A model generated the notes under the pieces. That model was not told the origin of the DNA. It did not search any database and was given only the letters and a program-made list of their open reading frames with translations. A program made the translations under genes and the position numbers. From sequence record OZ035819.1: a DNA stretch of 43,420 nt. The stretch is one strand, 5' to 3'. The DNA comes from Kagunavirus LM02P1. Position 1 is the first letter of the stretch; every line of letters begins with the position of its first letter. This document shows, in pieces, positions 2,760-40,335 of this stretch.

Positions 2760-2795
2760 GTTCACCTGTAGCCCCGAAAGGGGCTTTCTTATAGT

Positions 2796-3872
2796 ATGCT
2801 ATTAACTTTAGCGCCACAGGGTTTATTTATGAGCTTACTGACATCACTAATCAGCCACCAGATTTGGCTGCAACGCAACGCATCTGGCGAAGTGAAAGAC
2901 CTCGCACCGTTCATTCAGGAGATGCGGGATGAAATCAAACGGCAGGTGCTGTTGTTCGGCGACGACGGGAGAAGCACCGCGCGTCTCAATAAACTGTTAC
3001 GCGACTTAGAAGAAGCACTGACAGGGCTAGCCGGAGACTGGCAAACAAAGCTGACCGAAGACCTTAAGGAACTGGCAGCGTATGAGGCTGAGTGGAATGT
3101 GAAAACACTCACGGCTAACGTCAACGCTGAATTTGTTACCCCTACCGCTGAGCAGGTGTGGTCTGCAGCCGTGTTTCAACCGCTGGCGTTACGCGACAAG
3201 CCAGTTGATTTCACTAAGCTAATGGATGGCTGGGGTGAAACAGAAGTATCGCGACTGGTAACTGGTGTTAAGATGGGTTTCGTTCAAGGCCAAACCACAC
3301 GGCAGATTGTTAAAAATGTCGTTGGCGCTGGCGGACTGGCGGACATCTCTGAGCGCAACGCAGCTACGGTAACCCGCACCGCGCTGTCGCACATATCCAA
3401 CGAAGCACGCAACGAGACGTACCGTCAGAACGACGACATCATCGAGAAATATGAATGGGTATCGACGCTTGACAGCCGTACCAGTACGATTTGCAGAGCC
3501 AGGGACGGAATGACGTGGGAAATCGGTAAGGGGCCGATGCCCCCCGCCCATTTTGGCTGCCGAAGCACCACAGCACCTGTAATCAGTTCAGAATTCGACT
3601 TCCTCGATAAAGACGCAAAACGTGCAGCTAAGGGTGCGGACGGCGGAACTCAGGTAAGCGTGGACACCTCTTACTACGAGTTCCTAAAACAACAACCGGC
3701 ATGGTTTCAGGATGAAGCACTCGGTCCTGTTCGCGGTAAGATTTTCCGCAACAGCGGTATATCGCCGGAAGAGTTTCGCGTAATATCTGTAGATGGTTTC
3801 GGGAATCCGCTTACGCTTAAGCAGATGGCGGAACTCGATAAACGTGTTGCTGATTATCTGAAAGGGGAATAA
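2796..3872 (+). CDS. head morphogenesis protein (Mu F / SPP1 gp7-like minor capsid protein)
   Basis: 358 aa; conserved stretch WVSTLDSRTSTICRARDGMTWEI...PPAHFGCRS typical of this family; follows portal; alternative ATG at 2829. Confidence 0.75.
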   Translation: MLLTLAPQGLFMSLLTSLISHQIWLQRNASGEVKDLAPFIQEMRDEIKRQVLLFGDDGRSTARLNKLLRDLEEALTGLAGDWQTKLTEDLKELAAYEAEWNVKTLTANVNAEFVTPTAEQVWSAAVFQPLALRDKPVDFTKLMDGWGETEVSRLVTGVKMGFVQGQTTRQIVKNVVGAGGLADISERNAATVTRTALSHISNEARNETYRQNDDIIEKYEWVSTLDSRTSTICRARDGMTWEIGKGPMPPAHFGCRSTTAPVISSEFDFLDKDAKRAAKGADGGTQVSVDTSYYEFLKQQPAWFQDEALGPVRGKIFRNSGISPEEFRVISVDGFGNPLTLKQMAELDKRVADYLKGE

Positions 3873-4333
3873 TGATGGGCTTTTTCAAAGTAACTGACGT
3901 ACCTTCGCGTCGCGTTGTCCAGTTTGCTCGCGTGTCTGGCTCCGGTGAGAACGTGGTGTCTATTGGGGACGAAAGTGTACTAGGTACGCCAGTAGATGAT
4001 ATGCCGTTTGCAGATAAGACCGGTATTGCGCTACCCGCCGCGGGGATGCTTTACGAGATTCCGTATCTGGCTGACGCCGGCGACGTGTATTTCTCTGTGC
4101 AACCGAAAGACACGGAACTGACAGACGGCAGCGCGACTCTCACTGTCGAAGTTAAAGCCGGTAAAGCGCCATATGCTCTGACCTGGTACAAAGATGGCAA
4201 GGAAGTGGTAAACGCCCCGGAAGAGGCTTTGTCTCTGACGGTTAATGCTGTCGGTGAATACTTCGTTAAAGTTACCGATGCCGATGGTGTAGAGACGGTG
4301 AGTAAAGCGGCGAAGGTCACTAAGCCAGAATGA
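3872..4333 (+). CDS. Ig-like domain protein (possible head decoration/accessory)
   Basis: 153 aa; Ig-like signature YALTWYKDGKEV...GEYFVKVTDADG; ATGA overlap with upstream stop. Confidence 0.45.
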   Translation: MMGFFKVTDVPSRRVVQFARVSGSGENVVSIGDESVLGTPVDDMPFADKTGIALPAAGMLYEIPYLADAGDVYFSVQPKDTELTDGSATLTVEVKAGKAPYALTWYKDGKEVVNAPEEALSLTVNAVGEYFVKVTDADGVETVSKAAKVTKPE

Positions 4334-4336
4334 TAA

Positions 4337-4365
4337 AAGGCCCCGTTATGGGGCCTTAGTTTTAT
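4337..4365. terminator. bidirectional intrinsic terminator
   Basis: GC hairpin AAGGCCCC-gttat-GGGGCCTT flanked by T-runs on both strands, between convergent genes 3872..4333 (+) and 4362..4655 (-). Confidence 0.6.
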
Positions 4366-4655
4366 TTCTTTCCTAATGCTTTCTTGATTGCTTTGCCGGC
4401 CAGATTTAACGGATGGTCTTCATGGCAATCATCAGAAGATACCGCGCAAACATCCTCAACGTAATCGCGAAGCTGGCGAAGTGCTTCAAGTAACTCTGGT
4501 GCCGAGGCGATAAGTTTTGCGTTAGCCAATTTTACTGAGTCCTTTTCCCTCATACTCATTACCTCCGCCACATAAACATCACCCGCCCAGATAGCCGTTC
4601 CGCGATTAACCCATGCACCGTCTGTACCTTTAAATTCGTGTGTCATTTTTTTCAT
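4362..4655 (-). CDS. hypothetical protein (antisense moron, 97 aa)
   Basis: ATG at 4655 with own promoter at 4676-4704 and terminator at 4337-4365; no motif recognised. Confidence 0.55.
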   Translation of the reverse strand: MKKMTHEFKGTDGAWVNRGTAIWAGDVYVAEVMSMREKDSVKLANAKLIASAPELLEALRQLRDYVEDVCAVSSDDCHEDHPLNLAGKAIKKALGKK

Positions 4656-4675
4656 CTCCTGTTCAAGTTAACTGA

Positions 4676-4704
4676 ATAGTACCCTATTATATTGGGGTGT
4701 GCAA
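4676..4704 (-). promoter_or_regulatory. sigma70-type promoter (TTGCAC-N17-TACTAT) for 4362..4655
   Basis: Read on minus strand; core 27 nt (4673-4699) identical to 13905-13931. Confidence 0.55.
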
Positions 4705-4770
4705 ACTATTTGTCTACGTATTCCAGTTATTCCGCTCAATTGTAAATGTTGGAATAAACTATTCGAATAG

Positions 4771-4799
4771 TTGACTTTTCACTGAAAATGTGCTAAGCT
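4771..4799 (+). promoter_or_regulatory. strong sigma70-type promoter TTGACT-N17-TAAGCT with TGn extended -10
   Basis: -35 at 4771-4776, -10 at 4794-4799 preceded by TGC; perfect palindrome CTATTCGAATAG at 4759-4770 abuts the -35. Confidence 0.55.
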
Positions 4800-4805
4800 C
4801 CACCT

Positions 4806-5006
4806 GAGCTTGTGAAGTATGAACAAGCGACCGCGGCGCGGGCAGGTAACGGAGCGGGACGTAAGTCCTGAGTGTAGTTACGCTGACGCGTTCGGAAGGG
4901 CCATACTCTATTGCTTGTGTAAAAAGTAGCTGGTTTACTGAGATTACGCCGTTTTTATGTTTAAATGATAAGGACTAGCGCCCCGCTTTATGGCGGGGCT
5001 TTACTT
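4806..5006 (+). ncRNA. candidate ~200-nt noncoding transcript (or leader) between promoter 4771 and terminator 4978
   Basis: GC-rich, stop-rich region bounded by a promoter and an intrinsic terminator; only coding option is a 36-codon ORF (4819..4929) without a clear RBS. Confidence 0.3.
4978..5006 (+). terminator. intrinsic terminator
   Basis: Hairpin CGCCCCGC-tttatg-GCGGGGC followed by TTTACTT, 18 nt upstream of the Rz ATG. Confidence 0.5.
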
Positions 5007-5023
5007 ATCGAGAAAGGAGAAAC

Positions 5024-5410
5024 ATGAATCTTAAAGCAACTGTCGTAGCTGTAGCATGTTTCATCATCCTTGCCTACGCACACGGCTACTATCAATACCG
5101 CATCGGCTGGAACGAAGGCCGGGTGAATCTCGTTTCGCAGCAACAGCAGAAAGCACAGGCTGAGTTAGCGAAGAAAACACAACGGCAGCAGCAGGACGAA
5201 TCTAAGGCCGCCGCCGCCGATTCCAAAGGCAAGACTGAATCTGAGGTAATCACCCGTGAAGTCGTTAAGTACATTAAAACGCCTGGTCGCAGCGTGTGCA
5301 CTTTCGATGATGCTCGCGTCCTGCTCAAGTCCCGCGCCGTCGCAAACGCCAATTCCATCTCCGGATACGACGATGATACAGCCGCCGTGCAAGCTGGCAC
5401 CGCCAAGTAG
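5024..5410 (+). CDS. Rz: i-spanin (Rz-like inner-membrane spanin subunit)
   Basis: 128 aa; N-terminal TM helix VVAVACFIILAYA then charged Q/K/A-rich periplasmic region; a lipoprotein ORF overlaps in the +1 frame. Confidence 0.65.
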   Translation: MNLKATVVAVACFIILAYAHGYYQYRIGWNEGRVNLVSQQQQKAQAELAKKTQRQQQDESKAAAADSKGKTESEVITREVVKYIKTPGRSVCTFDDARVLLKSRAVANANSISGYDDDTAAVQAGTAK

Positions 5411-5519
5411 CGACGCTGACGAGGATTTGGCTATTGATGTCCAGAACGCCGAATGTGTACGGCAACTGCGTCTTAAGGTATTCCAGTTGCAGGATTATGT
5501 GAGGAATATTCTGGAATAG
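5256..5519 (+). CDS. Rz1: o-spanin (Rz1-like outer-membrane lipoprotein), overlapped architecture
   Basis: 87 aa; signal peptide with lipobox LASC, proline-rich mature part (SSPAPSQTPIPSPD); begins inside Rz in another frame and extends past its stop. Confidence 0.6.
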   Translation: MKSLSTLKRLVAACALSMMLASCSSPAPSQTPIPSPDTTMIQPPCKLAPPSSDADEDLAIDVQNAECVRQLRLKVFQLQDYVRNILE

Positions 5520-5601
5520 TTGCCTTGCATGTTGGAATAATTTATTCTTGACATGTAAATCCGGGTGGCCCGGGTTCCAACGTCCAGGGGACATACTGAC
5601 T

Positions 5602-6303
5602 ATGAATCGTTTTTTACGTTATCCGTTCCAGGAAGAAGCTGGAGCAGAAGATAAATCAGGTGGCGGTGACGCTCCTAAAATGTACACAGCCGAAGAAGTT
5701 CAGGCGCTGATTGAGAAAGAAGTTGCCGGGCTTAAGGCCAATCAGGAAGCATTGCTGGCGGAGAAGAAAGAAGCCGCTCGCAAAGCAAAAGAGGCCGAAG
5801 AAGAACGGCAGCGCGCACACCAGGAGGCACTAAAAGCCGCTGGTAAGATGGATGAGTTCGAAAAGACGATTCGTAGCCAGTATGACCCGGTGTTAGCTGA
5901 GAAAGACGGTCGCATCTCCAGAATGGCAGAGCGCATCCTCGGCAGCGAACGTAAAGCGGTGTTAGGCTCTTTCGCGGGTGACTTCATTACCCCCGAAGCA
6001 GTAGACATTCTTGCGCCGTTCGTTAAGACTGAGTTTGAAGGTGATGATGTGGTTACTAAGTTTGTCGGCGCAGATGGCAACGTAATCACGACTGACCCGG
6101 AACAGTTCCGCAAATACCTGCGTGAACACAAAGCGTTTTCGCATTTGATTAAAGCAAATGCAGCTTCCGGCGGCGGGGCTTCCGGCGGCAAAGGCGGCGG
6201 GGCCGCACCAGCGTTTAAAGATATGAACGAAGCGGAGCGTTTAGCTCTGTACAAATCGAACCCTGCCGAATTTGAACGGCAACTTAAAGCCCTGAGGAAA
6301 TAA
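5602..6303 (+). CDS. scaffolding protein
   Basis: Coiled-coil, E/K/A-rich sequence immediately upstream of major capsid gene; ATG at 5602 chosen, frame is open from 5548. Confidence 0.55.
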   Translation: MNRFLRYPFQEEAGAEDKSGGGDAPKMYTAEEVQALIEKEVAGLKANQEALLAEKKEAARKAKEAEEERQRAHQEALKAAGKMDEFEKTIRSQYDPVLAEKDGRISRMAERILGSERKAVLGSFAGDFITPEAVDILAPFVKTEFEGDDVVTKFVGADGNVITTDPEQFRKYLREHKAFSHLIKANAASGGGASGGKGGGAAPAFKDMNEAERLALYKSNPAEFERQLKALRK

Positions 6304-6305
6304 TA

Positions 6306-7355
6306 ATGGCAATTACCACTATCGGCGATATCGTAACTGGCAACGTACCCGTCCTTCTGTCTTATATGACTGAGGACCCGGTAGAGAAAACCGCGTTCTT
6401 CCAGTCCGGCATCCTGACCCCTACCCCGTACGCAGCAGATATTGCTCGTGGCCCGTCCAACATCGCTAATATTCCTTTCTGGAAAGCGATTGATACTTCT
6501 ATCGAGCCGAACTACTCGAACGATGTATACCAGGACATCGCCACTCCGCGCAACGTACAAACCGGTGAGATGATGGCGCGCGTCGCTTATCTGAACGAAG
6601 GTTTCGGACAAGCTGACCTGACTGTTGAACTGACCAGCCAGAACCCGCTGCAATCTGTTGCCTCTCGTCTGGATAACTTCTGGCAGCGTCAGGCTCAGCG
6701 CCGTCTGATTGCTACCGCCCTCGGTCTGTACAACGACAACGTAACGGCTACCGATGCCTACCACGAGCAGAACGACATGGTTATCGACGTGTCTGCAACT
6801 CTGGGATTCGATTCCGGTGCGTTCATTGATGCTACCCAGACCATGGGTGATGCGCTGATGGGTAACAGCGGTGAAGTGCTGGGTGCAATCGCGATGCACA
6901 GCTTTGTGTATGCACAGGCGCGTAAGCAACAGCTCATCGACTTCATCCGTGATGCCGACAACAACACCATGTTTGCCACCTACCAGGGCTACCGCGTGAT
7001 TGTTGACGACAGCATGACCGTAGTCGGCACTGGCCCTAGCCGTAAGTTCATCTCCATCATCTTCGGCAACGGTGCTATCGGTTACGGCGAGGGCAACCCG
7101 TCCAACCCTCTGGAATACGGGCGTGAAGCGTCTCGCGGTAACGGCGGCGGTGTTGAAACCCTGTGGACCCGTAAGACCTGGTTGCTGCACCCACTGGGCT
7201 ACAGCTTCACCAGTGCGGTAATCACCGGTAACGGTACTGAAACCGTAGCACGCTCTGCTTCCTGGCAGGACCTGGCAAACGCCTCCAACTGGAACCGCGT
7301 TGTTGACCGTAAGCATGTACCTATTGCCTTCCTGGTAACTGGTGTCGGTGCTTAA
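6306..7355 (+). CDS. major capsid protein
   Basis: 349-aa ORF after scaffold, followed by strong terminator at 7371-7395; codon-biased, highly expressed-looking. Confidence 0.75.
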   Translation: MAITTIGDIVTGNVPVLLSYMTEDPVEKTAFFQSGILTPTPYAADIARGPSNIANIPFWKAIDTSIEPNYSNDVYQDIATPRNVQTGEMMARVAYLNEGFGQADLTVELTSQNPLQSVASRLDNFWQRQAQRRLIATALGLYNDNVTATDAYHEQNDMVIDVSATLGFDSGAFIDATQTMGDALMGNSGEVLGAIAMHSFVYAQARKQQLIDFIRDADNNTMFATYQGYRVIVDDSMTVVGTGPSRKFISIIFGNGAIGYGEGNPSNPLEYGREASRGNGGGVETLWTRKTWLLHPLGYSFTSAVITGNGTETVARSASWQDLANASNWNRVVDRKHVPIAFLVTGVGA

Positions 7356-7370
7356 GGTTAAGCTATAATC

Positions 7371-7395
7371 GGGAGGGACTTCGGTCCCTCTTTTC
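7371..7395 (+). terminator. intrinsic terminator after capsid gene
   Basis: Hairpin GAGGGAC-ttcg-GTCCCTC followed by TTTT. Confidence 0.65.
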
Positions 7396-11909: not shown

Positions 11910-11935
11910 AAGGCCCCTTCCGGGGCCTTTTTCTT
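11910..11935. terminator. bidirectional intrinsic terminator
   Basis: Hairpin AGGCCCC-ttcc-GGGGCCT followed by TTTTCTT; same hairpin family recurs at 4337, 22745, 25394 and 28778. Confidence 0.65.
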
Positions 11936-38667: not shown

Positions 38668-38818
38668 CATCCTGAAAAACAGCGGCAAAGCGCCGCTGTC
38701 GCCACGTAAACGACATTTCAACACGCATCCGACGTATCTTGAATTACATGAGCGCCGGAAGACACCGGCGCAACGACTGGCTGAATATTGGAGAAAGCAT
38801 GACTACTATCGCGTTTGA
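38651..38818 (+). CDS. small basic protein (55 aa)
   Basis: ATG at 38651 overlapping the upstream gene end; K/R-rich. Confidence 0.3.
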   Translation: MTLATDILKNSGKAPLSPRKRHFNTHPTYLELHERRKTPAQRLAEYWRKHDYYRV

Positions 38819-39236
38819 CGGTAAGACGATGGCCTGCGACACCCGAGTTACCGCGGGCGACACGTATTTCAACACAGATACCAAGATATACGAGAGTGAT
38901 GCTTATGTTATCGGGGTCGCCGGTGACGCGGGCTGTGGTACTATGCTTGTTCAGGTATCAAATATCCTGACCATGCGTACCTATGAGTATAACTTTAAGG
39001 CTATTGTATACGAGAAGCACACCAGACGTGTTTTCTATGTGTCATTCGATAAAAGCTGGGGGTCAAATAGCTGCGTTGTCCCAATTGTTGATAGCTACTT
39101 CGCCGTCGGTTCAGGGGCTGATTTCGCGCGCGCAGCTATGGAATGTGAGTATTCCGCACAGGGGGCAGTGGCCGTTGCATCGAAGTTTGACACTAACACC
39201 GGCGGCAAGATTATTACCAAACAACTATTAGGATAA
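38799..39236 (+). CDS. HslV/proteasome beta-subunit-like Ntn hydrolase
   Basis: ATG at 38799 with RBS GGAGA; after Met the protein starts TTI (HslV starts TTIVSV); VTAGDTYFNTDTK, YVIGVAGDAGCG and FAVGSGADFARAA parallel HslV segments. Confidence 0.55.
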   Translation: MTTIAFDGKTMACDTRVTAGDTYFNTDTKIYESDAYVIGVAGDAGCGTMLVQVSNILTMRTYEYNFKAIVYEKHTRRVFYVSFDKSWGSNSCVVPIVDSYFAVGSGADFARAAMECEYSAQGAVAVASKFDTNTGGKIITKQLLG

Positions 39237-39295
39237 TTCCTACCCGTGGTATCCTCCAGTTACTGCATACTTAATACGCACCTGGAGGATTCATC

Positions 39296-39604
39296 TTGGA
39301 TAAATTTACTGAAACTGTGACAGGCTGGCTTCTCGCTGCCGCGCTAGCCGGAGGGGTTATCGGACTACGGCAACATAAGTCCGTTATTTCTGGGCCTATA
39401 GACGGCTTCTGCTTTATTGCAACTGGCTTCACTTGTGCCGTGTTTGGTGCACCTCTCGCGGCTCAATGGTTTGGCATTACGGGCGACCGTGAAATCGCAG
39501 GCCTGGGCTTCATTATCGCTATTCTCTGGATGCCTATCTATTCCCGCCTCTCTGGTATTGTTGCCGGAGAATATATCGCACGTCGAGGAGGCCCAGATGA
39601 ATGA
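39296..39604 (+). CDS. holin
   Basis: 102 aa, three hydrophobic helices, charged C-terminus; immediately upstream of lysozyme. Confidence 0.6.
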   Translation: MDKFTETVTGWLLAAALAGGVIGLRQHKSVISGPIDGFCFIATGFTCAVFGAPLAAQWFGITGDREIAGLGFIIAILWMPIYSRLSGIVAGEYIARRGGPDE

Positions 39605-39869
39605 GTTATTCTGGTTCGGCGGTATGCTGGCAATCGGAGGCGCATCGCTGTTTAATGTATATCATCCCAGCGTTGACGACGGGCTATTTGGCCGGGTGCT
39701 CTATATCCTGACCGCTATTGTCTGCGCCGCCGGGTGTATCCACCTGTTACAGGGCAGCATGTCACCTACGCTGCCTGAGACATTAATCACATTAGTTGCG
39801 CTGCGTCAGATTCGTCATGCGTGGCTGTCATACGGAGGATATAAGCGTGTCTCGAAATATTTCAGATAA
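39597..39869 (+). CDS. small membrane protein (second holin-like / lysis regulator, putative)
   Basis: ATG at 39597 with RBS GGAGG, overlapping holin stop (ATGAATGA); two hydrophobic segments. Confidence 0.45.
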   Translation: MNELFWFGGMLAIGGASLFNVYHPSVDDGLFGRVLYILTAIVCAAGCIHLLQGSMSPTLPETLITLVALRQIRHAWLSYGGYKRVSKYFR

Positions 39870-40335
39870 TGGATTGCATTTTACCGCTGCGTTCGAGGGG
39901 TTCCGCGGAACTGCATATCGCGCTACACCGAACGAGACGTACCTGACTATTGGTTACGGTCATTACGGGCCGGATGTAACGCCAGGCAAGACCATCACCC
40001 CGGGGCAAGGCCTCCTGTTACTAAATCGCGATATGGCGAAGGCCGTAGGCGCGGTTGATGCAGCAGCACACCATTCACTGACACAGGCACAGTTCGACGC
40101 TGTGTGCGACCTGGTCTATAACGCGGGTGCGGGCGTGATTGCCGCTACCACCGGAACCGGTAAGGCGCTGCGCTCCGGTGATGTTGCGACGCTGCGGGCT
40201 AAGCTGGCGCTGTTCATCAACCAGAACGGCAAACCGTTGCTCGGCCTGCGCCGCCGTACAGCCGGACGGCTCGCACTGTTCGACGGTAAACCGTGGCAGG
40301 AGGCTGAGGCTATTGGGCGCGCGGTGAAAGGTTGA
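39847..40335 (+). CDS. endolysin, GH24 phage lysozyme
   Basis: GTG at 39847 after GGAGG; ISDNGLHFTAAFEGFRGTAYRA...YLTIGYGH (catalytic E, TIGxGH) and C-terminal RRRTAGRLALF; frame open from 39796. Confidence 0.75.
   Translation: MSRNISDNGLHFTAAFEGFRGTAYRATPNETYLTIGYGHYGPDVTPGKTITPGQGLLLLNRDMAKAVGAVDAAAHHSLTQAQFDAVCDLVYNAGAGVIAATTGTGKALRSGDVATLRAKLALFINQNGKPLLGLRRRTAGRLALFDGKPWQEAEAIGRAVKG

Follow-up and report, generated by a model that had tools for sequence, protein, structure and literature searches.

The Kagunavirus LM02P1 encodes an overlapped pair of spanin genes, which we regard, with a probability of roughly 0.85, as the sole outer-membrane-disruption system of this phage. The pair is assigned to the two-component spanins of the Jersey family, occupies an inherited site, and is most likely expressed with the capsid genes. 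Its location beside the capsid genes, apart from holin and endolysin, belongs to the genome plan inherited by Guernseyvirinae and Dhillonvirus and is not peculiar to LM02P1. Both the pair and its split layout are already known, the former from a curated family and the latter from the published layout for Kagunavirus, Jerseyvirus, and Dhillonvirus.

The window, i.e., the whole stretch of DNA that was analysed (OZ035819.1, 43,420 nt), represents a Kagunavirus-like coliphage of the subfamily Guernseyvirinae. A 2-kb query around the spanin locus matched 489 phage records, including Kagunavirus, Bas72, fEg-Eco07-type isolates, and NTEC3, with a best identity of ~93-94%. As the gene terS spans both ends of the sequence, LM02P1 is taken to be a complete, circularly permuted, circular genome. 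The features discussed below are compiled in Table 1.

Table 1. Spanin locus, neighbouring elements, and lysis genes of LM02P1, with positions in the window.
Feature	Position	Strand	Evidence or description
MuF-like head morphogenesis gene	2796..3872		PHROG profiles
Hoc-like decoration gene	3872..4333		PHROG profiles
Bidirectional terminator-like GC hairpin	4337..4357	both	AAGGCCCCGTTATGGGGCCTT, then T-rich tail
Antisense ORF, 97 aa	4362..4655	-	phrog_1273 (function not known), E 2e-17
Palindromic promoter-like element	4675..4690	+	AATAGTACCCTATTAT, one of 8 genome copies
Operator-like TATTCC/GGAATA repeats	4719..4764	+	palindrome GGAATAAACTATTC at 4751-4764
Sigma-70-type promoter candidate	4771..4799	+	TTGACT 4771-4776, 17-nt spacer, extended -10 TGcTAAGCT 4791-4799
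Leader 5' structured domain	4821..4921	+	irregular hairpin, stems P1-P4, GUAA loop
Long GC-rich hairpin	4967..5009 (core 4980-4999)	+	ends 14 nt before i-spanin ATG; terminator-like in LM02P1
i-spanin gene	5024..5410	+	ATG, 128 aa; phrog_2536 'Rz-like spanin', E 8e-53
o-spanin gene	5256..5519	+	GTG, 87 aa; 'Rz-like spanin', phrog_5672 E 4e-29, phrog_1267 E 1e-17
Conserved regulatory region before scaffold	5503..5601	+	GGAATA repeats, palindrome, TTGACA, hairpin
Scaffold gene	5602..6303	+	phrog_206 head scaffolding protein, E 8e-56
Major capsid gene	6306..7355	+	annotated as major capsid protein at this place in relatives
Holin 1 gene	39296..39604	+	PHROG (phrog_2359 and phrog_2508 are the two holin matches)
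Holin 2 gene	39597..39869	+	PHROG (as for holin 1)
Endolysin gene	about 39847..40335 (start uncertain)	+	PF00959 Phage_lysozyme, E 2e-26

The i-spanin gene is preceded by the Shine-Dalgarno sequence AAGGAG, 5 nt 5' of the ATG. The N-terminus of its product, MNLKATVVAVACFIILAYAHGYY, contains the best 19-residue Kyte-Doolittle window (1.89, residues 1 to 19), indicating an N-terminal membrane helix. Lys4 is located on the N side of this helix, and the other ~100 residues are hydrophilic. Cys92 is invariant in the i-spanin alignment A2. The o-spanin gene is read in the +1 frame relative to the i-spanin gene, overlaps it by 155 nt, and has its own ribosome-binding site (GAGGT at 5243-5247, 8 nt before the GTG). 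The o-spanin signal peptide, MKSLSTLKRLVAACALSMMLAS, ends directly before Cys23, the cysteine of the lipobox L-A-S-C. The residue at position +2 after the lipidated cysteine is Ser and not Asp, in agreement with sorting to the outer membrane. The mature o-spanin comprises 65 amino acids and contains Cys45 and Cys67; Pro accounts for 30% of its first 30 residues. The lipoprotein signal was judged by a regex heuristic rather than by SignalP or LipoP, and with this filter the o-spanin is the only ORF with such a signal in all six frames of the 43.4-kb genome. The two genes thus combine the hallmarks of a two-component spanin, namely an N-terminal helix, a partner with a lipobox, gene adjacency, and periplasmic cysteines in both subunits.

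The lipoprotein ORF is widely conserved. A tblastn search with the o-spanin matched 666 phage records from Kagunavirus, Jerseyvirus, Cornellvirus, Dhillonvirus, and others. An ORF with start codon, signal, and lipobox was recovered in 84 of 85 loci (the LM02P1 window, GenBank relatives, and 80 IMG/VR loci), and the pairing with the i-spanin gene is kept. The sole locus in which this ORF was not recovered (L079) still gives a tblastn match. Among the loci, the two genes overlap by as much as 155 nt and by as little as 4-8 nt. The three cysteines of the o-spanin, a DADEDL motif, and a C-terminal helix of the RQLRLKV type are conserved among the loci compared, and Cys45 and Cys67 are kept in all homologues listed. 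The sequence-only reading of this DNA had named absence of the lipoprotein ORF from relatives as an argument against the pair; given the observed conservation, this argument does not apply. The o-spanin ORF is not a chance ORF.

The same reading had proposed an overlapped spanin pair at 5024..5519, unlinked from a holin and a lysozyme at 39296..40335 and about 8 kb away from them across terS. Each element it described was found in place. PHROG profiles and PF00959 place the two holins and the lysozyme in this interval, and the coordinates bear out the separation. On the circular genome, the distance from endolysin to spanins is 43420-40335+5024 = 8.1 kb, and a canonical contiguous holin-endolysin-spanin cluster does not occur in LM02P1. 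After the endolysin gene, no ORF for a membrane- or lipoprotein-type product was found, and nothing at that place is spanin-like.

The pair had also been placed in the late structural operon. This is imprecise: the pair lies between head genes but is set off from the preceding genes by a terminator, an antisense gene, and its own promoter, leader, and hairpin. The terminator-like hairpin at 4337-4357 closes the gene run terS-terL-portal-MuF-Hoc, and a near-identical copy is located at 11910-11929. The antisense ORF that follows sits in a 'moron' slot of variable content, with Hoc on one side and the spanin promoter on the other; it is present in few relatives (loci L008, L013, and L016), and the distance from Hoc to the spanins differs among loci. 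The promoter-like element AATAGTACCCTATTAT has 8 matches in the genome, compared with 0.19 expected by chance, and fits the consensus tgAATAGTa-ccTATTat-T, which was derived with PHIRE and assigned to a phage-encoded RNA polymerase in the fBC-Eco01 paper (PMC9825357). This AATAGT-N4-CTATTAT element was initially read as a leftward promoter of the antisense gene; the orientation of all eight copies fits transcription in the direction of the motif better. Being palindromic, it could act in both directions.

Clusters of the hexamers TATTCC/GGAATA are found only at 4719..4764 and 5479-5547, and those upstream of the spanins are conserved in Kagunavirus, Jerseyvirus, and Cornellvirus relatives. They are followed by the candidate sigma-70-type promoter, whose extended -10 motif, TGnTA[ACT][CG]CT, recurs at the corresponding position in 58 of 67 related loci. 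A simple consensus promoter scan made no call at 4771..4799, because the -10 hexamer matches at only 4/6 positions. The order on the + strand is thus promoter, leader (~220 nt), strong hairpin, and i-spanin gene.

Folding of the leader yields -77.6 kcal/mol, with z -2.8 relative to shuffled sequences. In 18 distinct Kagunavirus versions aligned by plain MAFFT, 96% of the cells of the 5' domain are paired, compared with 22-42% when the partners are slid, and four pairs are changed on both sides. Changes on both sides of the leader stems include GGAC/GUCC to GUGC/GCAC and GUAAC/GUUAC to GGAAC/GUUCC. A covariance model built from the alignment of the 18 versions finds exactly one copy in LM02P1 and one in the whole Bas72 genome. 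Jerseyvirus copies are found at E 1e-5 to 1e-7, together with one weak TS33-like match (E 0.12), and no Cornellvirus-type leaders are found by this model. Between Kagunavirus and Jerseyvirus leaders, 12 pairs are changed on both sides versus 0-2 in slid controls, in an alignment fitted to the model. RNAalifold on the Cornellvirus/TS33 group gave a fold without compensatory changes and thus does not demonstrate one structure common to all groups. When all groups were aligned globally with MAFFT and folded with RNAalifold, the sole structure to emerge was the hairpin near the ribosome-binding site. The promoter and a CGCG..CGGAAGGG motif are also shared by Cornellvirus-type leaders. Within the 5' domain, the available variation does not distinguish stem P1 from a competing 5' hairpin, in which leader positions 9-14 would pair with 24-29. 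Rfam gave no match in the whole window at gathering thresholds, the leader at 4800-5023 included, and only chance-level matches at 4600-5700 with E up to 10. An ORF of 36 amino acids at 4819..4929, annotated in Bas72, is broken by 1-nt indels in several relatives and is therefore unlikely to be coding. The 36-aa 'hypothetical protein' upstream of the spanins in relatives is most likely part of the structured leader RNA and not a gene.

The long hairpin at 4967-5009 (-23 kcal/mol, z -3.9) shows compensatory changes in Bas72 (CCCTGC/GCAGGG) and Jerseyvirus (GCCCGGC/GCCGGGC). Its core at 4980-4999 is followed by the tail UUUACUUAU in LM02P1, UUAGCGUAU in Jerseyvirus, and UGUUACGA in Cornellvirus; the U-tract is decent only in Kagunavirus and poor in the other groups. 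The tail is able to pair with an upstream GAUAAG. The hairpin could stop most transcripts before the spanins, and it may serve as an attenuator, a processing site, or a stabiliser.

Downstream of the o-spanin gene, the 82 nt that precede the scaffold gene hardly vary across the subfamily, from Kagunavirus as far as Hafnia phage TS33. This region contains the palindrome GGAATAATTTATTC at 5534-5547, TTGACA at 5548-5553, and the hairpin CCGGGTGGCCCGG before the scaffold gene. A convincing -10 hexamer was not seen after the TTGACA. The palindrome GGAATA-N3-TATTC has exactly two copies in the genome, one at the spanin promoter (4751-4764) and one at the scaffold gene (5534-5547). In the Cornellvirus SP-031, the spanins are followed by an inserted terminator and antisense gene, beyond which the regulatory region remains attached to the scaffold gene. 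This insertion indicates that the spanin pair is a self-contained unit.

The restriction of the palindrome to two sites suggests one regulator for the spanin and capsid units, and the spanins are hence read as co-regulated. In a model based on consensus motifs and their conservation, the spanins are most likely late genes expressed under common control with the capsid genes, without lysis-specific timing. The pair would be the first coding unit behind the sigma-70-type promoter, the structured leader, and the hairpin. By class, from lambda Rz/Rz1, the i-spanin is predicted to be held in the inner membrane through its N-terminal helix, while the o-spanin precursor would receive its lipid at Cys23 and be directed to the outer membrane. 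The C-terminal parts of both would bind across the periplasm, with the periplasmic cysteines forming covalent dimers. The complexes would build up harmlessly until the holins trigger and the lysozyme clears the peptidoglycan mesh; once freed, they would be expected to fuse the inner and outer membranes, as in lambda.

From the split of the lysis genes, the sequence-only reading had concluded that the spanins are under separate temporal control. This conclusion does not follow, as the palindrome common to the spanin and scaffold sites points to co-regulation with the capsid genes. It is unlikely that the split has a regulatory meaning, with the spanins being timed or dosed apart from holin and endolysin, for instance through the promoter, leader, and hairpin acting as an attenuator or antitermination switch. 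In favour of such a device are the conserved promoter of the pair, the covarying structure of the leader, and the terminator-like character of the hairpin in Kagunavirus. Furthermore, three terminator-like hairpins on the + strand (2770, 4337, and 4980) and the antisense gene separate the pair from the run of holin, endolysin, and terS. However, a different transcription unit is not equal to different timing, the shared palindrome ties the spanin unit to the capsid genes, and the U-tract of the hairpin at 4980-4999 is not conserved. In Dhillonvirus, where the minor capsid gene and the i-spanin gene overlap, there is no leader, so a spanin at this site can do without one. In the lambda model, spanins accumulate in late infection, held inactive by the intact peptidoglycan, and the holin sets the timing of lysis; spanin genes thus need no timer of their own. 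Literature searches for a transcriptome or transcript mapping of Guernseyvirinae or Jerseyvirus returned nothing relevant.

A tentative proposal, which we consider possible yet on balance doubtful, is that the leader is a new cis-acting regulatory RNA of Guernseyvirinae. Together with the pair of GGAATA-N3-TATTC palindromes, it would switch on the spanin, capsid, and tail genes, with the spanins as the start of the late unit, a place taken in lambda by the lysis genes. Such an RNA may consist of the covarying irregular hairpin of 100 nt with the invariant CGGAAGGG, followed by the long hairpin before the ribosome-binding site. It may function as an antitermination or attenuation device similar to put or pR'-tR', as a processing site, or as a stable small RNA of ~200 nt.

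The family assignment rests on the 'Jersey' overlapped spanin family defined by Kongari et al. 2018 (PMC6139136). Its members include Jersey, SETP3, wksl3, K1G/K1H/K1ind1-3, EP23, HK578, FSL SP-031, and others, with a threshold of 40% identity over 40% of the periplasmic domain, an overlap of 155 bp, and constant Cys45 and Cys67 in the o-spanin (PMC6139136). The LM02P1 i-spanin is 59% identical to that of wksl3 over the full length, and the o-spanin is 64.8% identical to that of wksl3 and 88.5% to that of K1ind1. These identities lie above the family threshold, and thus the LM02P1 pair belongs to the Jersey family; it also has the 155-nt overlap and both constant cysteines. In a Pfam hmmscan with a maximum E-value of 1, neither spanin matched an Rz or Rz1 family, and the matches obtained were at chance level, to unrelated families, and all far below the cut-offs. 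The initial designation of the pair as 'Rz/Rz1-type' is therefore valid for architecture, class, and topology, but not for sequence family.

The Pfam result is in line with another reading, in which the pair is not a spanin and represents a different envelope system, e.g., a superinfection-exclusion or receptor-blocking lipoprotein such as T5 Llp or Cor. Disruption of the outer membrane would then fall to something else. The location among virion genes instead of lysis genes fits this reading as well, and no experiment on spanin activity of the Jersey family was found in the literature searched. Nonetheless, it is very improbable, since homologues fill the spanin slot of canonical holin-endolysin cassettes, and the two partners invariably occur as a pair and have conserved cysteines in the periplasm. 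Moreover, the LM02P1 genome has no second spanin candidate, and the Jersey family is curated as spanins (PMC6139136).

The assignment as a spanin pair is accompanied by a conserved position. Each of the 65 IMG/VR loci L007-L071 has scaffold and capsid genes 3' of the pair, and 61 of them have MuF and/or Hoc 5' of it. The position is the same in wksl3, SP-031, TS33, and the Dhillonvirus PaulFeyerabend, and many GenBank relatives annotate the pair as spanins. Homologues with 36-38% identity follow directly after the endolysin gene in five further loci (L072, L073, L078, L082, and L083). For L072, the order holin, SAR-like endolysin, i-spanin, and o-spanin was confirmed, so this spanin family is elsewhere part of canonical cassettes. 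Alternatively, a mobile spanin 'moron' might have inserted recently between direct repeats (4718-4777 versus 5478-5547). The repeats of 11-19 nt flanking the cassette and the variable antisense genes in the adjoining slot might point to such an event, which nevertheless has only the slightest probability and was rejected in view of the deep synteny: the position is shared across Kagunavirus, Jerseyvirus, Cornellvirus, TS33, and Dhillonvirus, spanin identity drops to 38-53% in step with the neighbouring genes, and both repeat regions are independently conserved as regulatory regions.

Guernseyvirinae are widely used in the biocontrol of Salmonella and E. coli. Many database records mis-call or miss the o-spanin, and in many relatives it is labelled 'hypothetical protein'; the Bas72 record contains only a C-terminal fragment of 48 amino acids. 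Annotation of therapeutic Kagunavirus phages should start the o-spanin at the GTG at 5256 and make use of the lipobox. The spanin finding itself adds little, as it re-derives a curated family and a published layout. The leader RNA and the operator pair merit separate, modest attention: if the leader RNA controls late transcription, it would provide a first handle on gene regulation in this subfamily.

Lambda Rz/Rz1 resembles the LM02P1 pair in combining a type II inner-membrane protein with a lipoprotein of the outer membrane whose gene is read in the +1 frame, and in the periplasmic cysteines of both subunits. Rz1 is fully embedded, whereas the LM02P1 o-spanin gene is overlapped, and a sequence relation between the two systems is not detectable in the Pfam scan. 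In lambda, S, R, and Rz/Rz1 are contiguous, whereas the LM02P1 spanins are apart from holin and endolysin. The lambda lysis genes come first behind a promoter, a leader, and a terminator (pR'-6S-tR'), and this layout resembles that of the LM02P1 spanins, which come first behind promoter, leader, and hairpin.

Scattered lysis genes are known from other phages. They are not clustered in T4-like phages (PMC6139136), and those of P1 are described in the literature as atypically organised. The T4 spanin genes pseT.3/pseT.2 are unlinked from holin and endolysin, as in LM02P1. T4 and other phages with scattered lysis genes, such as P1, differ in that their spanins belong to other families with a separated architecture and other neighbours, whereas those of LM02P1 are overlapped. 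A review of lytic-protein diversity (PMC12596118) contains no statistics on gene linkage. The Dhillonvirus phages PaulFeyerabend, EP23, and HK578 have homologous spanins of 35-40% identity between the minor capsid and capsid genes and a holin-holin-endolysin group near the other genome end. The overlap of their i-spanin gene with the end of the minor capsid gene leaves no intergenic promoter or leader.

The same genome plan as in LM02P1 is found in Schulenberg, fBC-Eco01, and VB_EcoS-Golestan (Guernseyvirinae/Kagunavirus), for which the separation of spanins and lysis genes is stated in the respective papers (PMC6763661, PMC9825357, PMC7203180). A description of the promoter, the leader RNA, and the operator-like palindromes that flank the spanins is not given in these papers. 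The listed members of the Jersey family share 59-88% identity and the overlap architecture with the LM02P1 pair, as well as a conserved C-terminal half and a variable signal peptide. There is no difference of substance, and the LM02P1 pair represents a further, Kagunavirus-like member of this family, with ~93% identity to sequenced phages.

The spanin genes are preceded by a structured leader RNA, which occurs in a single copy per genome and whose stems covary in Kagunavirus and Jerseyvirus. A search of Rfam gave no family match for this leader. Within it lies a 36-aa ORF (4819..4929), named "hypothetical protein" in the annotation of relatives; its frame is disrupted by 1-nt indels, and it is probably not a gene. 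In the Hoc-less subgroup of related loci (L056, L058, L062, and L064-L066), the leader is absent upstream of the i-spanin gene. A different regulatory region is found 5' of the spanins of these loci, in which GACTCGCAAAATTTTGCGAGTC forms a perfect palindrome and TTGCGAGT motifs are repeated.

Features mapped around the spanin and holin genes and elsewhere in the genome
Feature	Coordinates	Strand	Remarks
Structured leader RNA	4800-5023	+	Conserved; between conserved promoter and spanin genes
Palindrome GGAATA-N3-TATTC	4751-4764		Just 5' of spanin promoter
Palindrome GGAATA-N3-TATTC	5534-5547		Just 5' of scaffold gene
AATAGT-N4-CTATTAT	4675, 13907	+	
AATAGT-N4-CTATTAT	25705, 29503, 32352, 32397, 35883, 37079	-	
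Bidirectional terminator-like hairpins AAGGCCCC...GGGGCCTT	4337-4357; 11910-11929		Near-identical pair
Terminator-like hairpin	2770-2785		3' of portal gene
Terminator-like hairpin	7371-7392		3' of capsid gene
HslV-family peptidase-like gene	38739..39236	+	phrog_1040, E 1.5e-37
9-bp stem UCCUCCAG / CUGGAGGA	39250-39292	+	Covers first holin Shine-Dalgarno

The palindrome GGAATA-N3-TATTC, present in exactly two copies in the whole genome, looks like a regulator-binding site. Both copies are located inside clusters of TATTCC/GGAATA hexamers and are kept across the subfamily. A second palindromic element, AATAGT-N4-CTATTAT, occurs eight times in the genome versus 0.19 copies expected by chance, with every copy pointing toward the genes downstream of it. 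This element agrees with the PHIRE consensus reported for the related phage fBC-Eco01, where it was attributed to a phage-encoded RNA polymerase (PMC9825357). In the relative Bas72, however, no gene is annotated as an RNA polymerase.

The paired bidirectional hairpins border stretches of the structural region that carry inserted antisense genes.

In public records, the o-spanin is frequently mis-annotated. Only a 48-aa C-terminal fragment is annotated in Bas72 (L001 5726-5872), while many Salmonella phage records contain the o-spanin as a "hypothetical protein" or without annotation.

The holin genes are adjoined on their 5' side by the peptidase-like gene. The first holin gene starts with TTG, and its Shine-Dalgarno sequence is sequestered in the predicted 9-bp stem (-19.4 kcal/mol, z -3.0). 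This stem resembles sdi, the structure that precedes lambda S, and it may keep holin translation low.
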